Assembly: GCA_019421525.1 (NCBI GenBank)
Contig: JAHZFC010000001.1
Location: 1 to 42,635, forward strand
DNA: 42,635 nt
Source: Clostridiales bacterium
Lineage (GTDB): Bacteria > Bacillota > Clostridia > Oscillospirales > Oscillospiraceae
Direction: 5' to 3'
Position 1 is the stretch's first letter, and each line of letters starts with the position of its first letter. The translations under genes and the position numbers were made by a program. Below the pieces are notes generated by a model that was given only the letters and a program-made list of their open reading frames with translations, did not search any database and was not told the origin of the DNA. Below, one piece after another: positions 1 to 6,437 of this stretch.

Positions 1-117
1 GAAGTCCTGGCTGATCTGGCCGGTACACGCCATATAGGCGAACACCCCTGTCAGCACCAGGGTGACCAGGCTCTTCACGCTCAGCAGCGTGGCCAGCCGT
101 TTGATGATGTTTTGCAT
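1..117 (-). CDS. Small membrane protein, probable holin (5' part only; runs off the window)
   Basis: ATG at 117 with GAGGTG RBS; translates MQNIIKRLATLLSVKSLVTLVLTGVFAYMACTGQISQDF (hydrophobic); lies at the end of the late operon. Confidence 0.6.
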   Translation of the reverse strand, partial: MQNIIKRLATLLSVKSLVTLVLTGVFAYMACTGQISQDF

Positions 118-139
118 TTTTTCACCTCATTTTTCATTT

Positions 140-184
140 TATGTATTGACAATTACATATTTTATGCTATAATAGAATCATAAA
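140..184 (+). promoter_or_regulatory. Strong sigmaA promoter of the moron, with inverted-repeat operators
   Basis: TTGACA 146-151, 16 bp, TGn-TATAAT 168-173; TATGTA/TACATA flank the -35, TTTATG/CATAAA flank the -10. Confidence 0.85.
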
Positions 185-212
185 GAGGGGAACACCCCAG
201 GAGGTATACGAG

Positions 213-497
213 ATGACGGGTACAGAGAAGCAGGTCAGTTGGGCCAACGAGATCATGGGCCGTCTGGATGGCATCCTTGACCAGATTGTTGCGAATATCC
301 CCAGCAGCTACAACCAGCAGCAGAAGGACATGATGGCGGGCTTTATCGAGCAGATGCGCAGCCAGATCCACGGCGCCGAATACGCTGGAGACGTGATCGA
401 CCTTTTCCGGGACGTCAAGACCCCAGAGGATCTGATGGGTATGTGGCGCACCACCGTCCCTAACACAGATGGGCAGCACAAGATTCTGGGCCGTTGA
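213..497 (+). CDS. Hypothetical 94-aa protein, first gene of the moron (candidate anti-defence protein)
   Basis: AGGAGG RBS, ATG start; TGTEKQxxWA N-terminal motif seen in small phage proteins. Confidence 0.75.
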   Translation: MTGTEKQVSWANEIMGRLDGILDQIVANIPSSYNQQQKDMMAGFIEQMRSQIHGAEYAGDVIDLFRDVKTPEDLMGMWRTTVPNTDGQHKILGR

Positions 498-511
498 AAG
501 GAGAACGAAAA

Positions 512-745
512 ATGAAAGAACGCTTTGAAGAAATGACCCTTGACCAGCTAGACGCCATCCGCGATGTGATGCGCTACCTTTACCCGGAGGCCATCGAGGA
601 CGACACCGCCGAGCGCCTGTGGCACGACCTGGAGAACGTCCGGCTGAAAAAGATCGTTGAGTATCAGGCCAGCGACGAGTACAAGCAGAAGTGCGCCGAG
701 ACCGACGCGCTTTATAATTCTCTTTTTCTGGGGGTGTCCCAATGA
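512..745 (+). CDS. Hypothetical small acidic protein (candidate anti-defence protein)
   Basis: AAGGAG RBS before ATG 512; D/E-rich; stop overlaps the next start (ATGA). Confidence 0.7.
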   Translation: MKERFEEMTLDQLDAIRDVMRYLYPEAIEDDTAERLWHDLENVRLKKIVEYQASDEYKQKCAETDALYNSLFLGVSQ

Positions 746-1218
746 CCAACCGCGAAGCCTATGTATTTGGCTGGGTCTTTGGCCGGCTCAACGCCGAAGC
801 CAAAGAGGACATCGGCGGCGACGTCGCCCTCGCTCCCCAGCGCCCTTACAGCGCAAGTGCCCGCGTCATCTCGGATGCCCACAGGCTCAGGATACTTAAG
901 GGAAACATCGACCACCAGGTAGGTGAGGCTCTGTCTGAGATCAACAGCATCGACCCACCTATGCAGGGCGGCTCGGAGAAGGTCCAGCCTCTCGAGATCC
1001 AGGCCTCCTGGCAGCTTGGCTATTTCGCTGGCCGTGCAAAGCAACCCCTCGCCGAGGAAGCCTTTGACATCGCCGCCGCCCGCCGCGCCAAGAAATTGAC
1101 CCAGGCGCAGCTCGCCGACCAGATGGGCGTTGACCAGGCCCTCATCTCCCGCTGGGAATCCGGGAAGGTCACCCCGAACAAGGACAACCTTACAAAGCTG
1201 AAAGATATCCTGACTTAA
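742..1218 (+). CDS. Cas11/Cas8c-C-terminus-like domain fused to a C-terminal XRE HTH (candidate Acr-Aca fusion)
   Basis: C-terminal LTQAQLADQMGVDQALISRWESGK is a clear XRE HTH; N-terminal AYVFGWVFGRL...A.QRP...EALSEI...QASWQLGYF resembles the Cas11c motif. Confidence 0.7.
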   Translation: MTNREAYVFGWVFGRLNAEAKEDIGGDVALAPQRPYSASARVISDAHRLRILKGNIDHQVGEALSEINSIDPPMQGGSEKVQPLEIQASWQLGYFAGRAKQPLAEEAFDIAAARRAKKLTQAQLADQMGVDQALISRWESGKVTPNKDNLTKLKDILT

Positions 1219-1230
1219 GGGGCGAGGACA

Positions 1231-1692
1231 ATGCCGAAACGATTAGATTTGTCCGGCCAAACATTTGGATACATCAAGGTGATCGAGCCCACGGACCGCA
1301 GGGATGGTAGCAGTGTGATATACAGATGCCTCTGCACTGCCTGCGGGAAAGAGTGCTACATGTCCACCAGATCCTTGCGCTCGGCCAAGTCCAAAAGCTG
1401 CGGCTGTATGCGTCCGTCTTACTTGGGTGACAGGCTTGGACACATATCTGACCATGTCGGTCACGTTAACGGGACCAACCTCTCCCGGATACAGTCCGAC
1501 AAGCCCCAGCGTAACAACACGTCTGGAGCCCGCGGAGTGTGCTGGACCGATGGCCTGTGGGAGGCTACCCTTTGGTATCAGGGCAAGCGCATCCGTCTTT
1601 ATCGAGGGCCAGACTTTGATGCGGCCGTAAAAGCCCGAAAAGAGGGAGAAAAAGAGCGACTGCTGCTAAGCCAAGATGATGCCGCCCCCTAA
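1231..1692 (+). CDS. 'DLxGQxFG' zinc-binding domain plus AP2-like DNA-binding domain protein
   Basis: RLDLSGQTFG, CxCxxCG, KSCGC motifs; NNTSGARGVCW..W.A...YQGKRI.L AP2-like tail. Confidence 0.75.
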   Translation: MPKRLDLSGQTFGYIKVIEPTDRRDGSSVIYRCLCTACGKECYMSTRSLRSAKSKSCGCMRPSYLGDRLGHISDHVGHVNGTNLSRIQSDKPQRNNTSGARGVCWTDGLWEATLWYQGKRIRLYRGPDFDAAVKARKEGEKERLLLSQDDAAP

Positions 1693-1706
1693 TGGGGGCG
1701 GTTTTT
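1682..1706 (+). terminator. Rho-independent terminator closing the moron
   Basis: CCGCCCCC-TAAT-GGGGGCGG followed by TTTTT. Confidence 0.85.
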
Positions 1707-2011
1707 CACATCTTGGTGAAGTTCTTGGCCGCCTCGTCCCGGGCGAAGTTGATATATGCCTCCTGGGCCTCCTCTGCCGCCCGCATAGCCTCCTCCACGT
1801 CCCCGTTGGTGTGCATCCCGGCCAGCTTTTTGGCCGTGGTCAGGGACAGGGAACAGGTGGCATACATCAGCTCCATGCTCAGGCGCATCTCATGGGACCG
1901 CCGCTCCGCCCGGCGCTCCATCCGGGCCGCAGACCGCCGGGACCGCACCTCCGCCGTGGCGGCCAGGATGGAGGCCACCGCGGCGATCAGCGCACAGACC
2001 ACCTCGATCAC
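1706..2011 (-). CDS. Small protein with N-terminal TM helix and coiled coil (holin-like lysis-module gene)
   Basis: GTG overlapping the upstream stop; VIEVVCALIAAVASILAA TM segment; position before the lysis genes. Confidence 0.6.
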   Translation of the reverse strand: MIEVVCALIAAVASILAATAEVRSRRSAARMERRAERRSHEMRLSMELMYATCSLSLTTAKKLAGMHTNGDVEEAMRAAEEAQEAYINFARDEAAKNFTKM

Positions 2012-2733
2012 GCCTCTACCTCCTGCCAGCCCTGGGGATAGTCCGCCGGGCTCCACACATTGCCGTCCATGAGGGACTGATACACCTTGCCGTTGTAGGT
2101 GACCACAGCCCCGGTGTTATAGGCGTCCTCCGCCCCCGTGGGCTGGACGAACTCAGGATAGACGGCCCCCTCCGGCTCCTCCGGCTCCGGCTCGGGGATG
2201 GGCTCGTCAGGCTCCTGGGTCTCTCCGCCGGTCTCCGGCTCCTCCGGCTCAGTTCCGGGCTCCTCGGGCTCCGCCGTGCCCACCTCTCCCAGGTCGGTCC
2301 ACCCCTGGGGGTAGCCGCTGGGCGCCCACACGTTGTCGTCCATGGTGGACTTCCAGACGTGCCCGCCCTCGGTGCAGCACTCATCCAGCATATACATCCC
2401 GCTGGTGCCGTTGGGCGCCTGCCAGGGCTTGGCCTTCAGCGGGTCCTTGGTGTGGCAGATGGACCACAGGGCGGGCAGGTCCGCCGGCCTCTGGTCCGGC
2501 CAGCTGGCCGCGTCGTAGGGCTGGAGCAGCTTGTACACCTGCCCCCCGTCCGTCACCGGGGCGCCCACGGGCCAGGCGGAGTAATCCTTCCCGGCCACGA
2601 AATCCGGCACCTTGCTCTCCTCGGCGATGACGGCGGTGCCATCCAGCTCCGCCGCCCGGGTGCGCAGGTCGGCGGCGTCCGCCGTCCCCTTCTCCTTCAT
2701 GGCCTGGTTGGCCAGAGTGTAGGTATCACTCAT
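2008..2733 (-). CDS. Virion-associated protein with repeated CBM5/12 (ChtBD3)-like modules and a Pro/Glu linker
   Basis: Repeated NVW(A/S)PxxYPQGW; QPTGAEDAYNTGAVVTYNGKVYQS motif; PE-rich linker. Confidence 0.75.
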   Translation of the reverse strand: MSDTYTLANQAMKEKGTADAADLRTRAAELDGTAVIAEESKVPDFVAGKDYSAWPVGAPVTDGGQVYKLLQPYDAASWPDQRPADLPALWSICHTKDPLKAKPWQAPNGTSGMYMLDECCTEGGHVWKSTMDDNVWAPSGYPQGWTDLGEVGTAEPEEPGTEPEEPETGGETQEPDEPIPEPEPEEPEGAVYPEFVQPTGAEDAYNTGAVVTYNGKVYQSLMDGNVWSPADYPQGWQEVEA

Positions 2734-3177: not shown

Positions 3178-3570
3178 CTATCTGCGGCCGTCCTGGCCGT
3201 GATGTTGTATCTTTTCGTCCCCCAGCAGCGAGGCAAAGAGGCCGCCCCGCCGCCGGTGCTGGCGGCTCTTTTTGGGCTTTGGCTGCGCCTCCGGCGGCTC
3301 CTCCCCCTCTCGCTTCCACCGGGGCCAGGGGTGGACGTCCAGCAGCTCCCCCCCATCCCCCAGGACGATGTCCATCCAGGGATAGCTCCAGCGGATCCGG
3401 GCCGCCAGGGGGCTCCTGGAGGGCACATACCACCACTCGTCCGCCCCCAGCCCCGCCCCCTCCAGGGTGTACTCCACCATCAGGGGCAGCTGCTGGCCGT
3501 CCGGGCCCTTGGCATACCGCCCGGCCCAGTAGTAGTCCAGCACCCCCAGGGTGGCCTTGTGGATCAGCAT
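3178..3570 (-). CDS. Hypothetical protein (distal tail module)
   Basis: ATG 3570 (MLIHKATLG...) overlapping the upstream stop; Trp-rich core, basic tail. Confidence 0.65.
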   Translation of the reverse strand: MLIHKATLGVLDYYWAGRYAKGPDGQQLPLMVEYTLEGAGLGADEWWYVPSRSPLAARIRWSYPWMDIVLGDGGELLDVHPWPRWKREGEEPPEAQPKPKKSRQHRRRGGLFASLLGDEKIQHHGQDGRR

Positions 3571-4763
3571 GATACCGCCCCCTTGAGCTTGCGCAGGGTG
3601 GGCCCATCGATGCGGTCGATGAGCTCGTCGCACCCCCGCGTCAGGTCCCGCAGCGCCCCCAGCACACTGCCCGCCTGGGCGGTGTGCTCCACTCTGGCCG
3701 GCCGGTAGGCGGGCAGCAGGGATGGCTCCAGGGGCACCGGCCCATACATCCGGTCCACCTTGCGGCACAGCACCGGGGACACTCCCAGCGCCTGGGCCGC
3801 CTCCGCCCAGCTATGGCCCGAGCGCACCAGACAGAGGATGTGGTAGTGGAGCAGGGGCACCCCGTGGACCGTCTGGCCCCGGAGGACAAAGGCATAAAAA
3901 AACTTCCGGCTCAGCCCCAGCTTCTCCGCCAGCTCCTTCTCCCCGATGCCGGACCAGTCCCGAAACCTGACCCGGCTCACATCCACCTCCGGCAAAAAGT
4001 CCACCCGGACCGCCGCCAGCCGCTCCTCCGCCCGCTCCAGCCCCCGGTACACCGTGGACTTGTTGCGCCCCAGGTAGGCCGCCATCATGGTATAGGAGGC
4101 GTCCTGGGTGAGGGCCAGATAGATCAGCTCCGTCTGCCGCTCGGTGAGCACCTTGGTGCTGCGCACAAATTTGAGATAATCGAACCGCCCCCGGTCATCC
4201 AGACACCGGGCGATGGTCAGCCGGGCCACCACATGGTGGGCCACATGGGCCAGCCCCGCCTTGATGCCCCTCGACACCGCGGACTTGCCCACCCCCCGCG
4301 CCTGGGCGATCTCCTCCATGGTCTTTTCCCGGGTGTAATACTCGTGGATATAGGTCTTTTGCACTTCCGTGCAGCTCTGGACGCTGTCATTCAGGAGGTC
4401 GGTGAGCAGCTGGCTCTGCCGCCCGGTGGCCACCCCGTCCCGGGCCTGCTGGATGTCCTCCCAGGCCATCCCCTCCGCCTGGCTCCAGGTCATGCCGGAC
4501 AGGTCCGCCCACACCAGGTCCCCGTCAAAGATGTGGTCCCCCCGGATGGGGCGCTTCTTCTCCCCGCGCTGCCGGCCCTCCAGCCGGGCCACCTCCTCCC
4601 CGGCCTCCTGGTACATGTCCCGGAGGATGCGGGAGCGCTCCAGCTGCCGGCGGCGCTCTGCGCTGTCCAGGGTGGTCTGGGCGATCTCCCGGGCCTCCTT
4701 CATGCGGCCGTATAGTTTGGCTTTGCGCTCTCTGGCGGCCTGGAGCTCCTCCTCCCGGGTCAT
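3564..4763 (-). CDS. Multi-HTH protein with tandem sigma70 region-4-like domains
   Basis: ATG 4763 overlapping the XkdU-like stop; KTMEEIAQARGVGKSAVSRGI and LTERQTEL...SYTMMAAYLGRNKSTVYRGL, plus two further HTH-like segments. Confidence 0.7.
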   Translation of the reverse strand: MTREEELQAARERKAKLYGRMKEAREIAQTTLDSAERRRQLERSRILRDMYQEAGEEVARLEGRQRGEKKRPIRGDHIFDGDLVWADLSGMTWSQAEGMAWEDIQQARDGVATGRQSQLLTDLLNDSVQSCTEVQKTYIHEYYTREKTMEEIAQARGVGKSAVSRGIKAGLAHVAHHVVARLTIARCLDDRGRFDYLKFVRSTKVLTERQTELIYLALTQDASYTMMAAYLGRNKSTVYRGLERAEERLAAVRVDFLPEVDVSRVRFRDWSGIGEKELAEKLGLSRKFFYAFVLRGQTVHGVPLLHYHILCLVRSGHSWAEAAQALGVSPVLCRKVDRMYGPVPLEPSLLPAYRPARVEHTAQAGSVLGALRDLTRGCDELIDRIDGPTLRKLKGAVSC

Positions 4764-5347
4764 GAGGCGCTCTCCCTGGCCCGGACCATGATCTTTTGGT
4801 CGAACGCCTCCCAGGTGGGGAACTGCTCCTCCAGCTGCTCCCAGGTGAGCCCCGCCGTCTCCAGGTCCCCCCAGGTGACCGGCAGGATCACGAACTTGAG
4901 ATGGGCGGGCTTGACCTCTTCCACCGCCGCGATGATGGCGTCCAGGTCGAAGCTGGCGAAAAAGGAGCTGTCCCCCAGAAAGTAGAGGGAAAAGGTGTAC
5001 TCGTCCGTCTGCTCCACCACCACCGCCTCGTAGCCCGTCAGGGCCTTGGCGATGTCGGAGATCATCCCCGCGTTGCAGGTGCCAGACCCCAGCAGCTTGG
5101 TGGTGATGGCCGCCCGGCGCTCCTCCTCGGTGGCCCCCGCCGCCGGGGTGATGCCCACCAGGTCCTCCCACCAGGCAAGCCCCCAGGTGGCGGTGGCGAT
5201 GTGGGCCTGGTCGGCCGCGTCCAGCACCGCCGCCCGGGCGGCCAGGGCCTGATCGGTCAGGGCCACGATGATGGCCAGGCTCTTCGGATCTGCCTCCAGG
5301 TGCTCCGGCACCCGCTGGGTGCCGGGCAGGTCTTGATAGGTGGCCAT
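4760..5347 (-). CDS. Baseplate protein, XkdU/YmfQ (DUF2313)-like
   Basis: TATWGLAWWE, EERRAAI, EEVKPAHL motifs; follows baseplate J. Confidence 0.85.
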   Translation of the reverse strand: MATYQDLPGTQRVPEHLEADPKSLAIIVALTDQALAARAAVLDAADQAHIATATWGLAWWEDLVGITPAAGATEEERRAAITTKLLGSGTCNAGMISDIAKALTGYEAVVVEQTDEYTFSLYFLGDSSFFASFDLDAIIAAVEEVKPAHLKFVILPVTWGDLETAGLTWEQLEEQFPTWEAFDQKIMVRARESAS

Positions 5348-5351
5348 GGCG

Positions 5352-6437
5352 TCAGCTCCCCTCTGTGATGGACACCGTGCCCACCACCGGCGTCTGCTCC
5401 TGGCTCACCGAGATGTTGGTGGTCCCGCTGTTGACGGTAAAGGCGGAGTAGTCCTCCACCCCCTCGCAGTCCAGCAGCAGGGCCAGGCACCGGCTCCACC
5501 GCACCAGGGTGGTCTCCCCAAAGGGTAGGTCCAGCAGCATCTGGGCCAGGGATGCCTCCAGCTCCTCCTGGACGGCCTGGGCGGTGACGCCGGAGGTCAA
5601 TGTGACGGTGGCGGACACGTTGATGGCCAGCTCTGTGACAGTGACCACGGTAACGTCCGCCCCGATGGGCCGCTCCTCCTCGATGTGGGCCTCTACCTCA
5701 TCGATCACGTCCTCGTCCACCGGGTCCTTGTCCGGCCCGGCCACGATGACCTTGACGGTGCCCGGCCCGTCCCAGATGGGCACGCACTGGGCGTTGATGA
5801 CCCCGGAGACCTCTTTGGCCCAGCTGATATAGTGGTTTTTGTTGCCCGAGCTGATAGGCCGCTGGAGGTACTCCCGGTAGCGGGTCAGAAAGGCGGCGTC
5901 CGTCTCCTCGTCGGCGCCCCCATAGGCCGCCGCCGGGTTGGTGCAATAGGACACCCCCGCCACGTTGCGGCTCATCACCGTGATGGTGTTGGCCTCCACG
6001 TTGTAGGCCCGGCCCGCCTGCTCCGCCTCCGCCAATGCGGTGCCCACCCCGGCCGACCAGGTCACCGGCTCCAAAGTGATGAACTTGAGCCCGTCCCGGG
6101 TGACCACCGTGGTCCCCGCCGGCACGCTGGGGGACGAGGTGGAGGTGAGGGCGGTGAACTGCATGGTCACCTGGGCCTTGACCCCCGGTGTGCGGGTGAG
6201 GCCGAAGTCCGCCGCCTGCATATCGATGAGCTCGCCGGATGTCTCGTCCGGGAACACCAGCTGCATCAGCCAGGGCACCAGCTGGTACACCAGCCACATC
6301 TGATAGGCCGCCGGGGAGGCCAGGTGGTTGGCAAAGGACCCCTCCCGGATCTCCACCGTCCCCTCCAGCTCGTCCAGGATCGCTTTTTTGATGCTCTCCG
6401 GCGTGTAGTCGGCGTATTGGTTAGATAGTGCAGCCAT
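5352..6437 (-). CDS. Baseplate J-like protein (XkdT-like)
   Basis: GGADEETD, SGNKNHYISWA.EV.GV, GPGTVKV, RPIGADVTV motifs. Confidence 0.92.
   Translation of the reverse strand: MAALSNQYADYTPESIKKAILDELEGTVEIREGSFANHLASPAAYQMWLVYQLVPWLMQLVFPDETSGELIDMQAADFGLTRTPGVKAQVTMQFTALTSTSSPSVPAGTTVVTRDGLKFITLEPVTWSAGVGTALAEAEQAGRAYNVEANTITVMSRNVAGVSYCTNPAAAYGGADEETDAAFLTRYREYLQRPISSGNKNHYISWAKEVSGVINAQCVPIWDGPGTVKVIVAGPDKDPVDEDVIDEVEAHIEEERPIGADVTVVTVTELAINVSATVTLTSGVTAQAVQEELEASLAQMLLDLPFGETTLVRWSRCLALLLDCEGVEDYSAFTVNSGTTNISVSQEQTPVVGTVSITEGS

Follow-up and report, generated by a model that had tools for sequence, protein, structure and literature searches.

Layout of the cassette

The window analysed here is a stretch of 42,635 nucleotides (nt) from a Clostridiales bacterium of the family Oscillospiraceae. 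It is the entire contig C1 of a host assembly of 272 contigs that is 75% complete, and window position 1 is the contig end. From about 36.7 kb down to position 1 nearly every gene lies on the minus strand, in a run of phage late genes. A plus-strand island at 140-1707, composed of a promoter, four close-packed open reading frames (ORFs) and a terminator, forms a single transcription unit, referred to here as the cassette. Its prophage context, with small genes followed by a helix-turn-helix (HTH) gene in a mobile-element setting, is that of operons pairing anti-CRISPR (acr) and anti-CRISPR-associated (aca) genes. An earlier sequence-only reading of the window had described a counter-oriented unit with two small unknown ORFs, an HTH gene, an AP2-type gene and a terminator, and these ORFs and the terminator were all recovered on the plus strand of the island. 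One contig from another study (run X2) covers window 1-2032 unbroken, so the arrangement represents real DNA rather than an assembly artefact. The features of the cassette are as follows.

146-173, plus strand: sigma-70 promoter, with TTGACA at 146-151, a 16-nt spacer and a TG-extended TATAAT at 168-173 (12/12 matches).
140-182, plus strand: putative operator block, with half-sites TATG at 140-143, CATA at 156-159, TATG at 163-166 and CATA at 179-182.
187-204, plus strand: hairpin in the 5' untranslated region (5'-UTR), with GGGG at 187-190, AACA, and CCCC at 195-198, followed directly by an AGGAGG ribosome-binding site (RBS) at 199-204.
213-497, plus strand: gene 1, encoding an acidic five-helix protein of 94 amino acids (aa), an anti-defence candidate.
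512-745, plus strand: gene 2, encoding an acidic 77-aa protein; its stop overlaps the gene 3 start by 4 nt (ATGA).
742-1218, plus strand: gene 3, encoding a two-domain protein of 158 aa.
742-1056, plus strand: N-terminal domain of gene 3, an acidic look-alike of Cas11c, the type I-C small subunit.
1057-1218, plus strand: C-terminal domain of gene 3, an XRE-type HTH and presumed autorepressor (Aca role).
1231-1692, plus strand: gene 4, encoding a 153-aa CasPR-like, putative DNA-binding protein with a probable CapR-type zinc ribbon and a probable AP2 domain.
1681-1707, plus strand only: intrinsic terminator, with a 9-bp G+C stem (1681-1702) followed by UUUUU; the gene 4 stop lies within the loop.

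The terminator hairpin has a folding energy of -22.3 kcal/mol (z -5.2), equalled by 0/200 shuffles, and no U-tract accompanies it on the minus strand.

The gene 3 protein

Residues 106-158 of the gene 3 protein form an XRE-type HTH (Pfam HTH_3, E 4e-12) that aligns with ImmR at Z 9.7. Its likeness to Aca10 (7xi5, Z 8.7) and Aca2 (7ezy, Z 7.8) is confined to the HTH and is no better than that to ImmR, CylR2 or P22 C2. In the AlphaFold2 (AF2) model, which has a mean predicted confidence (pLDDT) of 87, residues 2-102 match in structure both free Cas11c and the C-terminal domain of Cas8c from type I-C, with about 90 residues aligned, and the modelled domain has the helical-bundle fold of the Cas11c small subunit. 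Three of the best 50 rows of a wide fold search were not HTH proteins, and all three were type I-C; a second search gave seven such rows among its best 50, all of them type I-C Cas8c C-termini or free Cas11c. The type I-C matches were 8dfo_I (Cas8c C-terminus, Z 9.2), 9jhb_B (Z 9.1, 90/114 residues, root-mean-square deviation 2.5), 8dfs_I (Z 9.0), 9jhc_A (Z 8.9), 7kha_K (Z 8.6), 8g9u_H (Z 8.0) and 8dej_I (Z 7.9), scores that lie below the Z of about 13 under which, according to the fold tool, a match can reflect an arrangement common among helical bundles. Profile comparison of the gene 3 family with 12 Cas8c C-termini of the host family by hhalign gave a probability of 60% and an E of 8.4e-5 over 90 colinear columns, with both end motifs aligned (the N-terminal aromatic-Gly and the C-terminal QLGYY).

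Plain sequence likeness to Cas11c is marginal. Pfam Cas_Csd1 gave no match to gene 3 at E up to 1, leaving it outside that family by sequence; HMMER scores did not exceed 8 bits; and the best BLASTP alignment with Cas11c, 38% identity over 50 residues, reached E 5e-4 only because the database was tiny. In view of this faint signal and of the tool's warning, both of which weigh against the anti-CRISPR interpretation developed below, we rate the N-terminal domain, as modelled, as probably homologous to Cas11c or a close mimic of it rather than as a proven relative. The earlier description of gene 3 as a Cas11-like/HTH gene is upheld at that strength.

The two proteins share a fold over about 90 of 114-120 residues together with the N-terminal aromatic-Gly and C-terminal QLGYY motifs. 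They differ in setting and in charge: Cas11c is basic and translated from inside cas8c, whereas the gene 3 domain is acidic, fused to an HTH and encoded in a prophage cassette rather than a cas operon. The median isoelectric point (pI) was 5.2 for 20 gene 3 N-domains versus 9.4 for 12 Cas8c C-termini, and net charge ranged from -8 to +1 versus +3 to +7, so that the basic surface of the Cas8c C-termini is not found in the gene 3 domain. Within type I-C Cascade, the displaced (non-target) strand is kept in place by basic residues that belong to Cas8c and Cas11c (10.1101/2022.06.15.496202). An ESM Atlas search with the N-domain gave no usable match, and a literature search, with most subscription journals outside its reach, found no fusion of a Cas11c-like domain with an HTH.

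A low-GC genome of the same family (G067) contains two stand-alone ORFs of about 120 aa, at C11:80355-80693 and C5:66084-66476 (loci L105 and L106). Their match to Pfam Cas_Csd1 is limited to its C-terminal region, which corresponds to Cas11c (E ~3e-7), and no cas genes were present in the 7-9 kb inspected around them. A 247-aa, tandem-looking relative of these ORFs lies at L106 2055-2798.

The gene 3 family and its variable cargo

Gene 3 belongs to a family of at least 228 clusters at 90% identity. An IMG/VR scan with the gene 3 alignment confirmed 94 places; the 80 best of them, together with the metagenome contig L012, make up 81 fetched loci, or 82 with the window. Gene 3 is present in all 81, by which the other cassette genes are far from matched: gene 2 occurs in 21/81, across three cargo classes, gene 1 in one (L012), and a relative of gene 4 also in one, placed elsewhere in that locus and not adjacent to gene 3.

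Clustering of the 1000 nt before gene 3 resolved eight unrelated classes (52, 16, 4, 2, 2, 2, 2 and 1 loci, window included), and the 1000 nt after it fell into 15 classes. The first genes of the upstream classes encode unrelated small proteins of 61, 97, 87, 142 and 104 aa, and the distant relatives L125 and L126 carry further cargos beyond these classes. Among six cargo proteins scanned, none had a Pfam family above cut-off or a PHROG of known function. The largest class, with 52 loci, is minimal, consisting of the promoter, a 61-aa gene, gene 3 and a terminator immediately after it, and there the unit adjoins DUF4417 and early genes. A conserved HTH anchor preceded by exchangeable genes is the pattern of acr-aca operons.

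The position of the cassette also varies. In L012 genes 1-2-3 are conserved at 71, 63 and 75% identity, a different zinc-ribbon gene takes the fourth place, and the cassette stands after the endolysin at the prophage end; it follows the endolysin in L030, L070 and L126 as well. A closely related sister prophage contig of the host assembly (C202) shares the upstream genes and the holin-like gene with the window, with only a 75-aa transmembrane (TM) protein between them and no cassette, and its identity with the window ends at the fifth codon of the holin-like gene. Gene content at this site varies among related prophages, the comparison that the sequence-only reading had proposed as a check, and the cassette is not invariant core content: it is missing from C202, sits after the endolysin in L012 and is found with eight classes of upstream genes. 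The cassette DNA, gene 1 and the gene 3 N-domain had no match among GenBank phages.

Promoter, operator block and leader

The promoter is the sole promoter-like site within window 1-2200; shuffled sequences averaged 0.7 sites at the scan's looser threshold. The same promoter is present in locus L019. Read from the sequence, the four half-sites form two TATG-N12-CATA dyads that enclose the -35 and -10 elements, with a central CATA-TTT-TATG palindrome in the spacer. A repeat search with a 6-nt seed found no inverted repeat, and returned a direct repeat, ATTTTATG, at 136 and 159. Arms of 4 nt are meaningless alone, and the dyads gain significance because the block is conserved across gene 3 loci. 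The 11-mer ATGTATTGACA, which spans the -35, occurs in exactly one copy, upstream and on the same strand, in 78/82 gene 3 loci (window included); in the remaining four only 2-618 nt were available upstream of gene 3. The leader is nearly identical ahead of each cargo class, and the central palindrome is retained in the distant relatives L091, L125 and L126, where gene 3 is just 39-55% identical. Read by eye, the loci differ by class at the inner pair of the second dyad, A/T giving way to C/G, with exceptions such as the C/T of the window.

A dyad-symmetric putative operator thus overlaps a strong promoter, as in acr-aca operons, and the description of a near-consensus sigmaA promoter overlapped by two inverted repeats holds. 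This layout is what an autorepressor needs, and gene 3 is predicted from it to bind here. The GGGG-AACA-CCCC hairpin reported ahead of the first RBS is likewise present, and was also seen in L012 and, with a GGGA/TCCC stem, in cargo class U2; its fold is statistically unremarkable (-6.9 kcal/mol, z -1.5, with 18/200 shuffles folding equally well). These statistics give no support to the hairpin as a regulatory element.

A 1322-nt contig found in two chicken-gut runs (X4 and X5) shares only the leader and RBS with the window (168-206) and continues into a U2-type cargo gene, so that the same leader is joined to different cargo in the same habitat.

The gene 4 protein

Residues 1-61 of the basic gene 4 protein (pI 9.4) match PHROG 374 (E 2.4e-21), and residues 90-146 match PHROG 99 (E 1e-10), 4578 and 3593, families labelled 'HNH endonuclease'. 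Pfam AP2 gave no match at E up to 1, and a sequence search of the PDB returned nothing. Alignment with gp22 of Listeria phage A006 ran end to end (29% identity over 151 aa, E 7e-14) and included the AP2 motif. The first of the two PHROG-matching regions corresponds to a CapR-like part and the second to an AP2-like part. In A006, gp22 follows acrIIA1 in a counter-oriented cassette adjoining holin and ply, and gene 4, as a full-length homologue of this CapR/AP2 gene, provides the link to known acr genes that the earlier reading had called for.

As described in a 2026 preprint, CasPRs are DNA-binding anti-CRISPRs that combine CapR with AP2 and are encoded in acr loci of Bacillota prophages; they bind inside cas genes and silence them mainly in lysogeny, and their cysteines lie at C33, C35, C37, C56 and C58 (10.64898/2026.02.23.707548). 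Those of gene 4 lie at 33, 35, 38, 57 and 59. Among CasPRIB1, CasPRIB2 and CasPRIIA1, gene 4 is closest in build to CasPRIB1, with one putative CapR zinc ribbon and one putative AP2 domain, and it has near-identically placed cysteines and an acr-type locus in a Bacillota prophage.

In L012 the gene 4 slot (1897-2256) is taken by another basic protein, which has two CxxC pairs, matches a double zinc ribbon (E 0.001) and may be an alternative DNA-binding partner.

The gene 1 and gene 2 proteins

Genes 1 and 2 encode acidic proteins (pI 4.9 and 4.5) for which a sequence search of the PDB returned nothing. The close family of gene 1 comprises 11 clusters, all of 94 aa, within an unannotated superfamily of 266 representatives; when 22 of the 150 listed representatives were scanned for Pfam domains or fused forms, none was found at cut-off. 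The AF2 model has five helices (pLDDT 97.8), and a BFVD search with gene 1 returned only uncharacterised phage proteins. In IMG/VR none of 114 pattern matches was confirmed, and two partial matches in genome contigs were judged to be chance. A divergent superfamily member is the first gene of the gene 3 cassette in L030. The gene 2 family has 17 clusters, and an ESM Atlas search with gene 2 gave no usable match. Both genes are anti-defence candidates by association only.

AcrIE7 ranked first for gene 1 in two methods (E 1.1; Z 6.2), without separation from unrelated helical rows, and was set aside as a lead only. The likeness is further weakened by the acidity of gene 1, since AcrIE7 binds single-stranded DNA.

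Distant relatives of gene 1 were also observed outside phages. One, at L010 8443-8754 (G248:C6), lies near YolD- and UmuC-like genes; another, at L011 2507-2926 (G246:C62), lies on a plasmid-like contig with ParA, resolvase and DnaB, and has a 40-aa N-terminal extension resembling the beginning of the 97-aa protein that class U2 carries as cargo (L040 4443-4736).

Possible association with type I-C CRISPR-Cas

The type I-C gene cas8c was detected in 40/151 genomes of the family and in 10/41 of the genus. A search of 401 family genomes with the gene 3 N-domain identified two further carriers, G024 and G398, and both have a full-length cas8c (2/2 other carriers). In G024, the contig that carries cas8c also contains a type I-C array, in which a 33-nt repeat occurs 30 times. 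One 36-nt spacer of this array matches the genome's own gene 3 relative at 35/36 positions, with the mismatch at CRISPR RNA (crRNA) position 33, which is distal to the protospacer-adjacent motif (PAM), and with TTC on the PAM side; it was the only match among 28 spacers tested. Self-targeting with a proper PAM is a classic sign of an active inhibitor in a lysogen.

Comparison with known systems

The A006 locus (gp25-gp24-acrIIA1-gp22) resembles the cassette in being counter-oriented at lysis genes and in consisting of small genes, a two-domain HTH protein and a CapR/AP2 gene. The C-terminal domain of AcrIIA1 is directed at Cas9. AcrIIA1 carries its HTH at the N-terminus, whereas gene 3 has a C-terminal HTH and a Cas11c-shaped N-domain; the small genes of the two loci are without sequence relation, and the hosts are Listeria and a Clostridia-type gut bacterium, respectively.

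AcrIB4 of Listeria seeligeri offers a second comparison. This protein inhibits type I-B and is homologous to the final 90 residues of Cas8b (10.1101/2023.06.24.545427), and it is proposed to replace Cas11 as a faulty subunit (10.1101/2025.06.06.658234). AcrIB4 is a mobile-element copy of the small-subunit part of a Cascade large-subunit gene, and gene 3 is probably another. AcrIB4 is a stand-alone protein 38% identical to Cas8b, whereas gene 3 shares only about 17% identity with Cas8c in structure-based alignments, is related to type I-C and fused to an HTH, and its inhibitory activity is a prediction. With Aca1, Aca2, Aca10 and other Aca autorepressors, gene 3 shares the HTH gene ending an operon of small variable genes, the dyads over a strong promoter and the guilt-by-association pattern. 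By the tests used here it could not be assigned to any of the named Aca families, and it has an extra domain of about 100 aa.

Interpretation and alternative explanations

Taken together, these results make it likely that the cassette is an autoregulated anti-CRISPR operon of the acr-aca type, a mobile moron of temperate phages of gut Clostridia, most likely directed against type I-C. The description as an autonomous, counter-oriented moron with acr-aca architecture is borne out by its own promoter and terminator, the conserved anchor, the swapped cargo and the link to the A006 acr locus. In the proposed mechanism (Aca-like in its regulation), the HTH of gene 3 would bind the TATG/CATA dyads over the -35, spacer and -10 and shut the operon after an early burst. 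The Cas11c-like domain would occupy the small-subunit place in type I-C Cascade and, having no basic surface to hold the displaced strand, would leave the complex inactive, the effect that has been proposed for AcrIB4 on type I-B. Gene 4 may bind inside a cas gene and block its transcription during lysogeny in the manner of CasPRs, and genes 1 and 2 may be conventional protein inhibitors of a defence system.

On the same side of the scale as the faint Cas11c sequence signal and the poorly separated AcrIE7 match are several further points. Searches of the window's own assembly, at its 75% completeness, found no cas8c, cas7 or cas1. The array and the prophage of G024 are on different contigs of a 90-contig assembly, and they may therefore not share one cell. 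Neither the window nor the 81 loci contained a credible protospacer for any of 50 spacers from six type I-C arrays of the same genus, and the cargo proteins had no match to known Acr proteins. Gene 4 is likened to CasPRs by description and not by sequence; its match to Pfam CapR is below cut-off (E 0.021, 15.4 bits versus 24.2), and no gene-3-adjacent relative of it occurs in the 81 loci. The CasPR preprint itself states that inhibition could not be detected when AP2 genes from acr loci of Listeria and Clostridioides were tested earlier (10.64898/2026.02.23.707548).

Several of these points would suit a regulated moron whose cargo is not anti-defence and serves superinfection exclusion, host modulation or lysogen fitness instead, with gene 3 acting just as a repressor and its bundle being an exapted dimerisation or ligand-sensing domain that makes no contact with Cascade. 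Helical dimerisation domains are common among HTH repressors, helical bundles reach middling Z scores by chance, and the weak sequence support for Cas11c likeness, the host assembly without cas genes and the cargo proteins without a known family all fit this account. We nevertheless consider it unlikely: the non-HTH fold rows are seven type I-C entries exclusively, both Cas11c end motifs align in the profile comparison, the cassette is built gene for gene like the Listeria acr locus, CasPR-like gene included, and 2/2 other carriers are type I-C, one of them with a self-targeting spacer and the right PAM.

The overlap of the gene 2 stop with the gene 3 start, the resemblance of the gene 3 HTH to those of the HigA, MqsA and HipB antitoxins, and the dyads over the promoter could also be expected of a HigBA-like toxin-antitoxin or abortive-infection pair, with gene 2 as toxin and gene 3 as HTH antitoxin, kept for stability or defence. 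This is very improbable, given that gene 2 is small and very acidic, had no match to toxin families and is restricted to a minority of the loci, and that the gene upstream of gene 3 is unrelated in most of them; a partner that varies among eight classes does not fit a co-evolving toxin-antitoxin pair, in which it would be fixed. We see an equally slight chance that the unit is the phage's own lysis or lysis-lysogeny control, in which gene 3 and the AP2 protein regulate the adjoining holin and endolysin genes. The unit does lie in or beside lysis genes in the window, L012, L030, L070 and L126, and two of its proteins are predicted to bind DNA; the largest class, however, lies elsewhere, beside DUF4417 and early genes, the sister prophage has the same lysis genes without the cassette, and the end of the lysis module is the usual site of morons and acr loci, as in A006.

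A more far-reaching version of the anti-CRISPR interpretation treats gene 3 as both a Cascade-sensing switch and a poison subunit, and its family as a widespread anchor marking at least eight undescribed inhibitor families in gut Clostridia phages. Docked gene 3 would then be drawn off the operator, so that operon output would rise with the amount of Cascade and fall once Cascade is saturated. We hold this joint reading to be decidedly doubtful.

Operon logic of this kind, inhibitors homologous to Cas proteins (AcrIB4) and CasPRs are already known; the literature search, within the journals open to it, found no account of a widespread anchor that joins a Cas11c-like domain to an HTH and would act against type I-C in gut Clostridia phages. 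Pseudomonas, Listeria and streptococci have well-charted anti-CRISPR loci, whereas the strictly anaerobic Clostridia of the gut, in which type I-C is frequent, have hardly been mapped in this respect. Gene 3 is abundant, recognisable and tied to a fixed promoter, and is therefore usable as a guilt-by-association anchor, with the eight upstream gene classes and two more in the distant relatives as immediate inhibitor candidates. If its domain does poison Cascade, gene 3 would be a self-regulating type I-C counterpart of AcrIB4, and phages would have turned the small subunit against its complex on two independent occasions. Off-switches for type I-C have practical value, since this type serves in genome editing by large deletions.

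Flanking genes and other observations

The cassette is flanked on both sides by minus-strand genes.

1-117, minus strand: left flank, first 39 aa of a small holin-like protein with two TM segments, truncated at the contig end.
1706-2056, minus strand: right flank, 116-aa protein with one N-terminal TM segment.

The left-flank gene continues on contig C35, where it is followed by an Amidase_2 endolysin gene, and its product matches PHROG 13256 (E 2.7e-6), a family without an assigned function. Homologues of the 116-aa protein with 70% identity are encoded upstream of the holin-like gene in loci L083 and L084. The cassette had been placed between two holin-like genes; TM-protein genes do lie on the minus strand on both sides, and neither matches a holin family in Pfam or PHROG, the label resting on size, TM segments and position; the TM segments and the place next to an amidase are compatible with a holin.

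To the right of the 116-aa gene lies a gene for a CBM5/12 tail-fibre-like protein (2008-2733, minus strand), with a C-terminal CBM5/12 domain behind a Pro/Glu-rich linker. An otherwise near-identical gene of the sister prophage (L002 768-1265) is without this domain, and the two prophages thus differ over a block larger than the cassette. In L019, DNA at about 5650-5760, just past the cassette terminator, translates like a tRNA gene (a GGIEPP-type artefact ORF), with a phage tRNA or an attachment site as possible explanations. Among the late genes of the window, a minus-strand gene at 3564-4790 encodes a 408-aa protein with several sigma-70 region-4-like HTH units, which is conserved in L012 (5716-6888).

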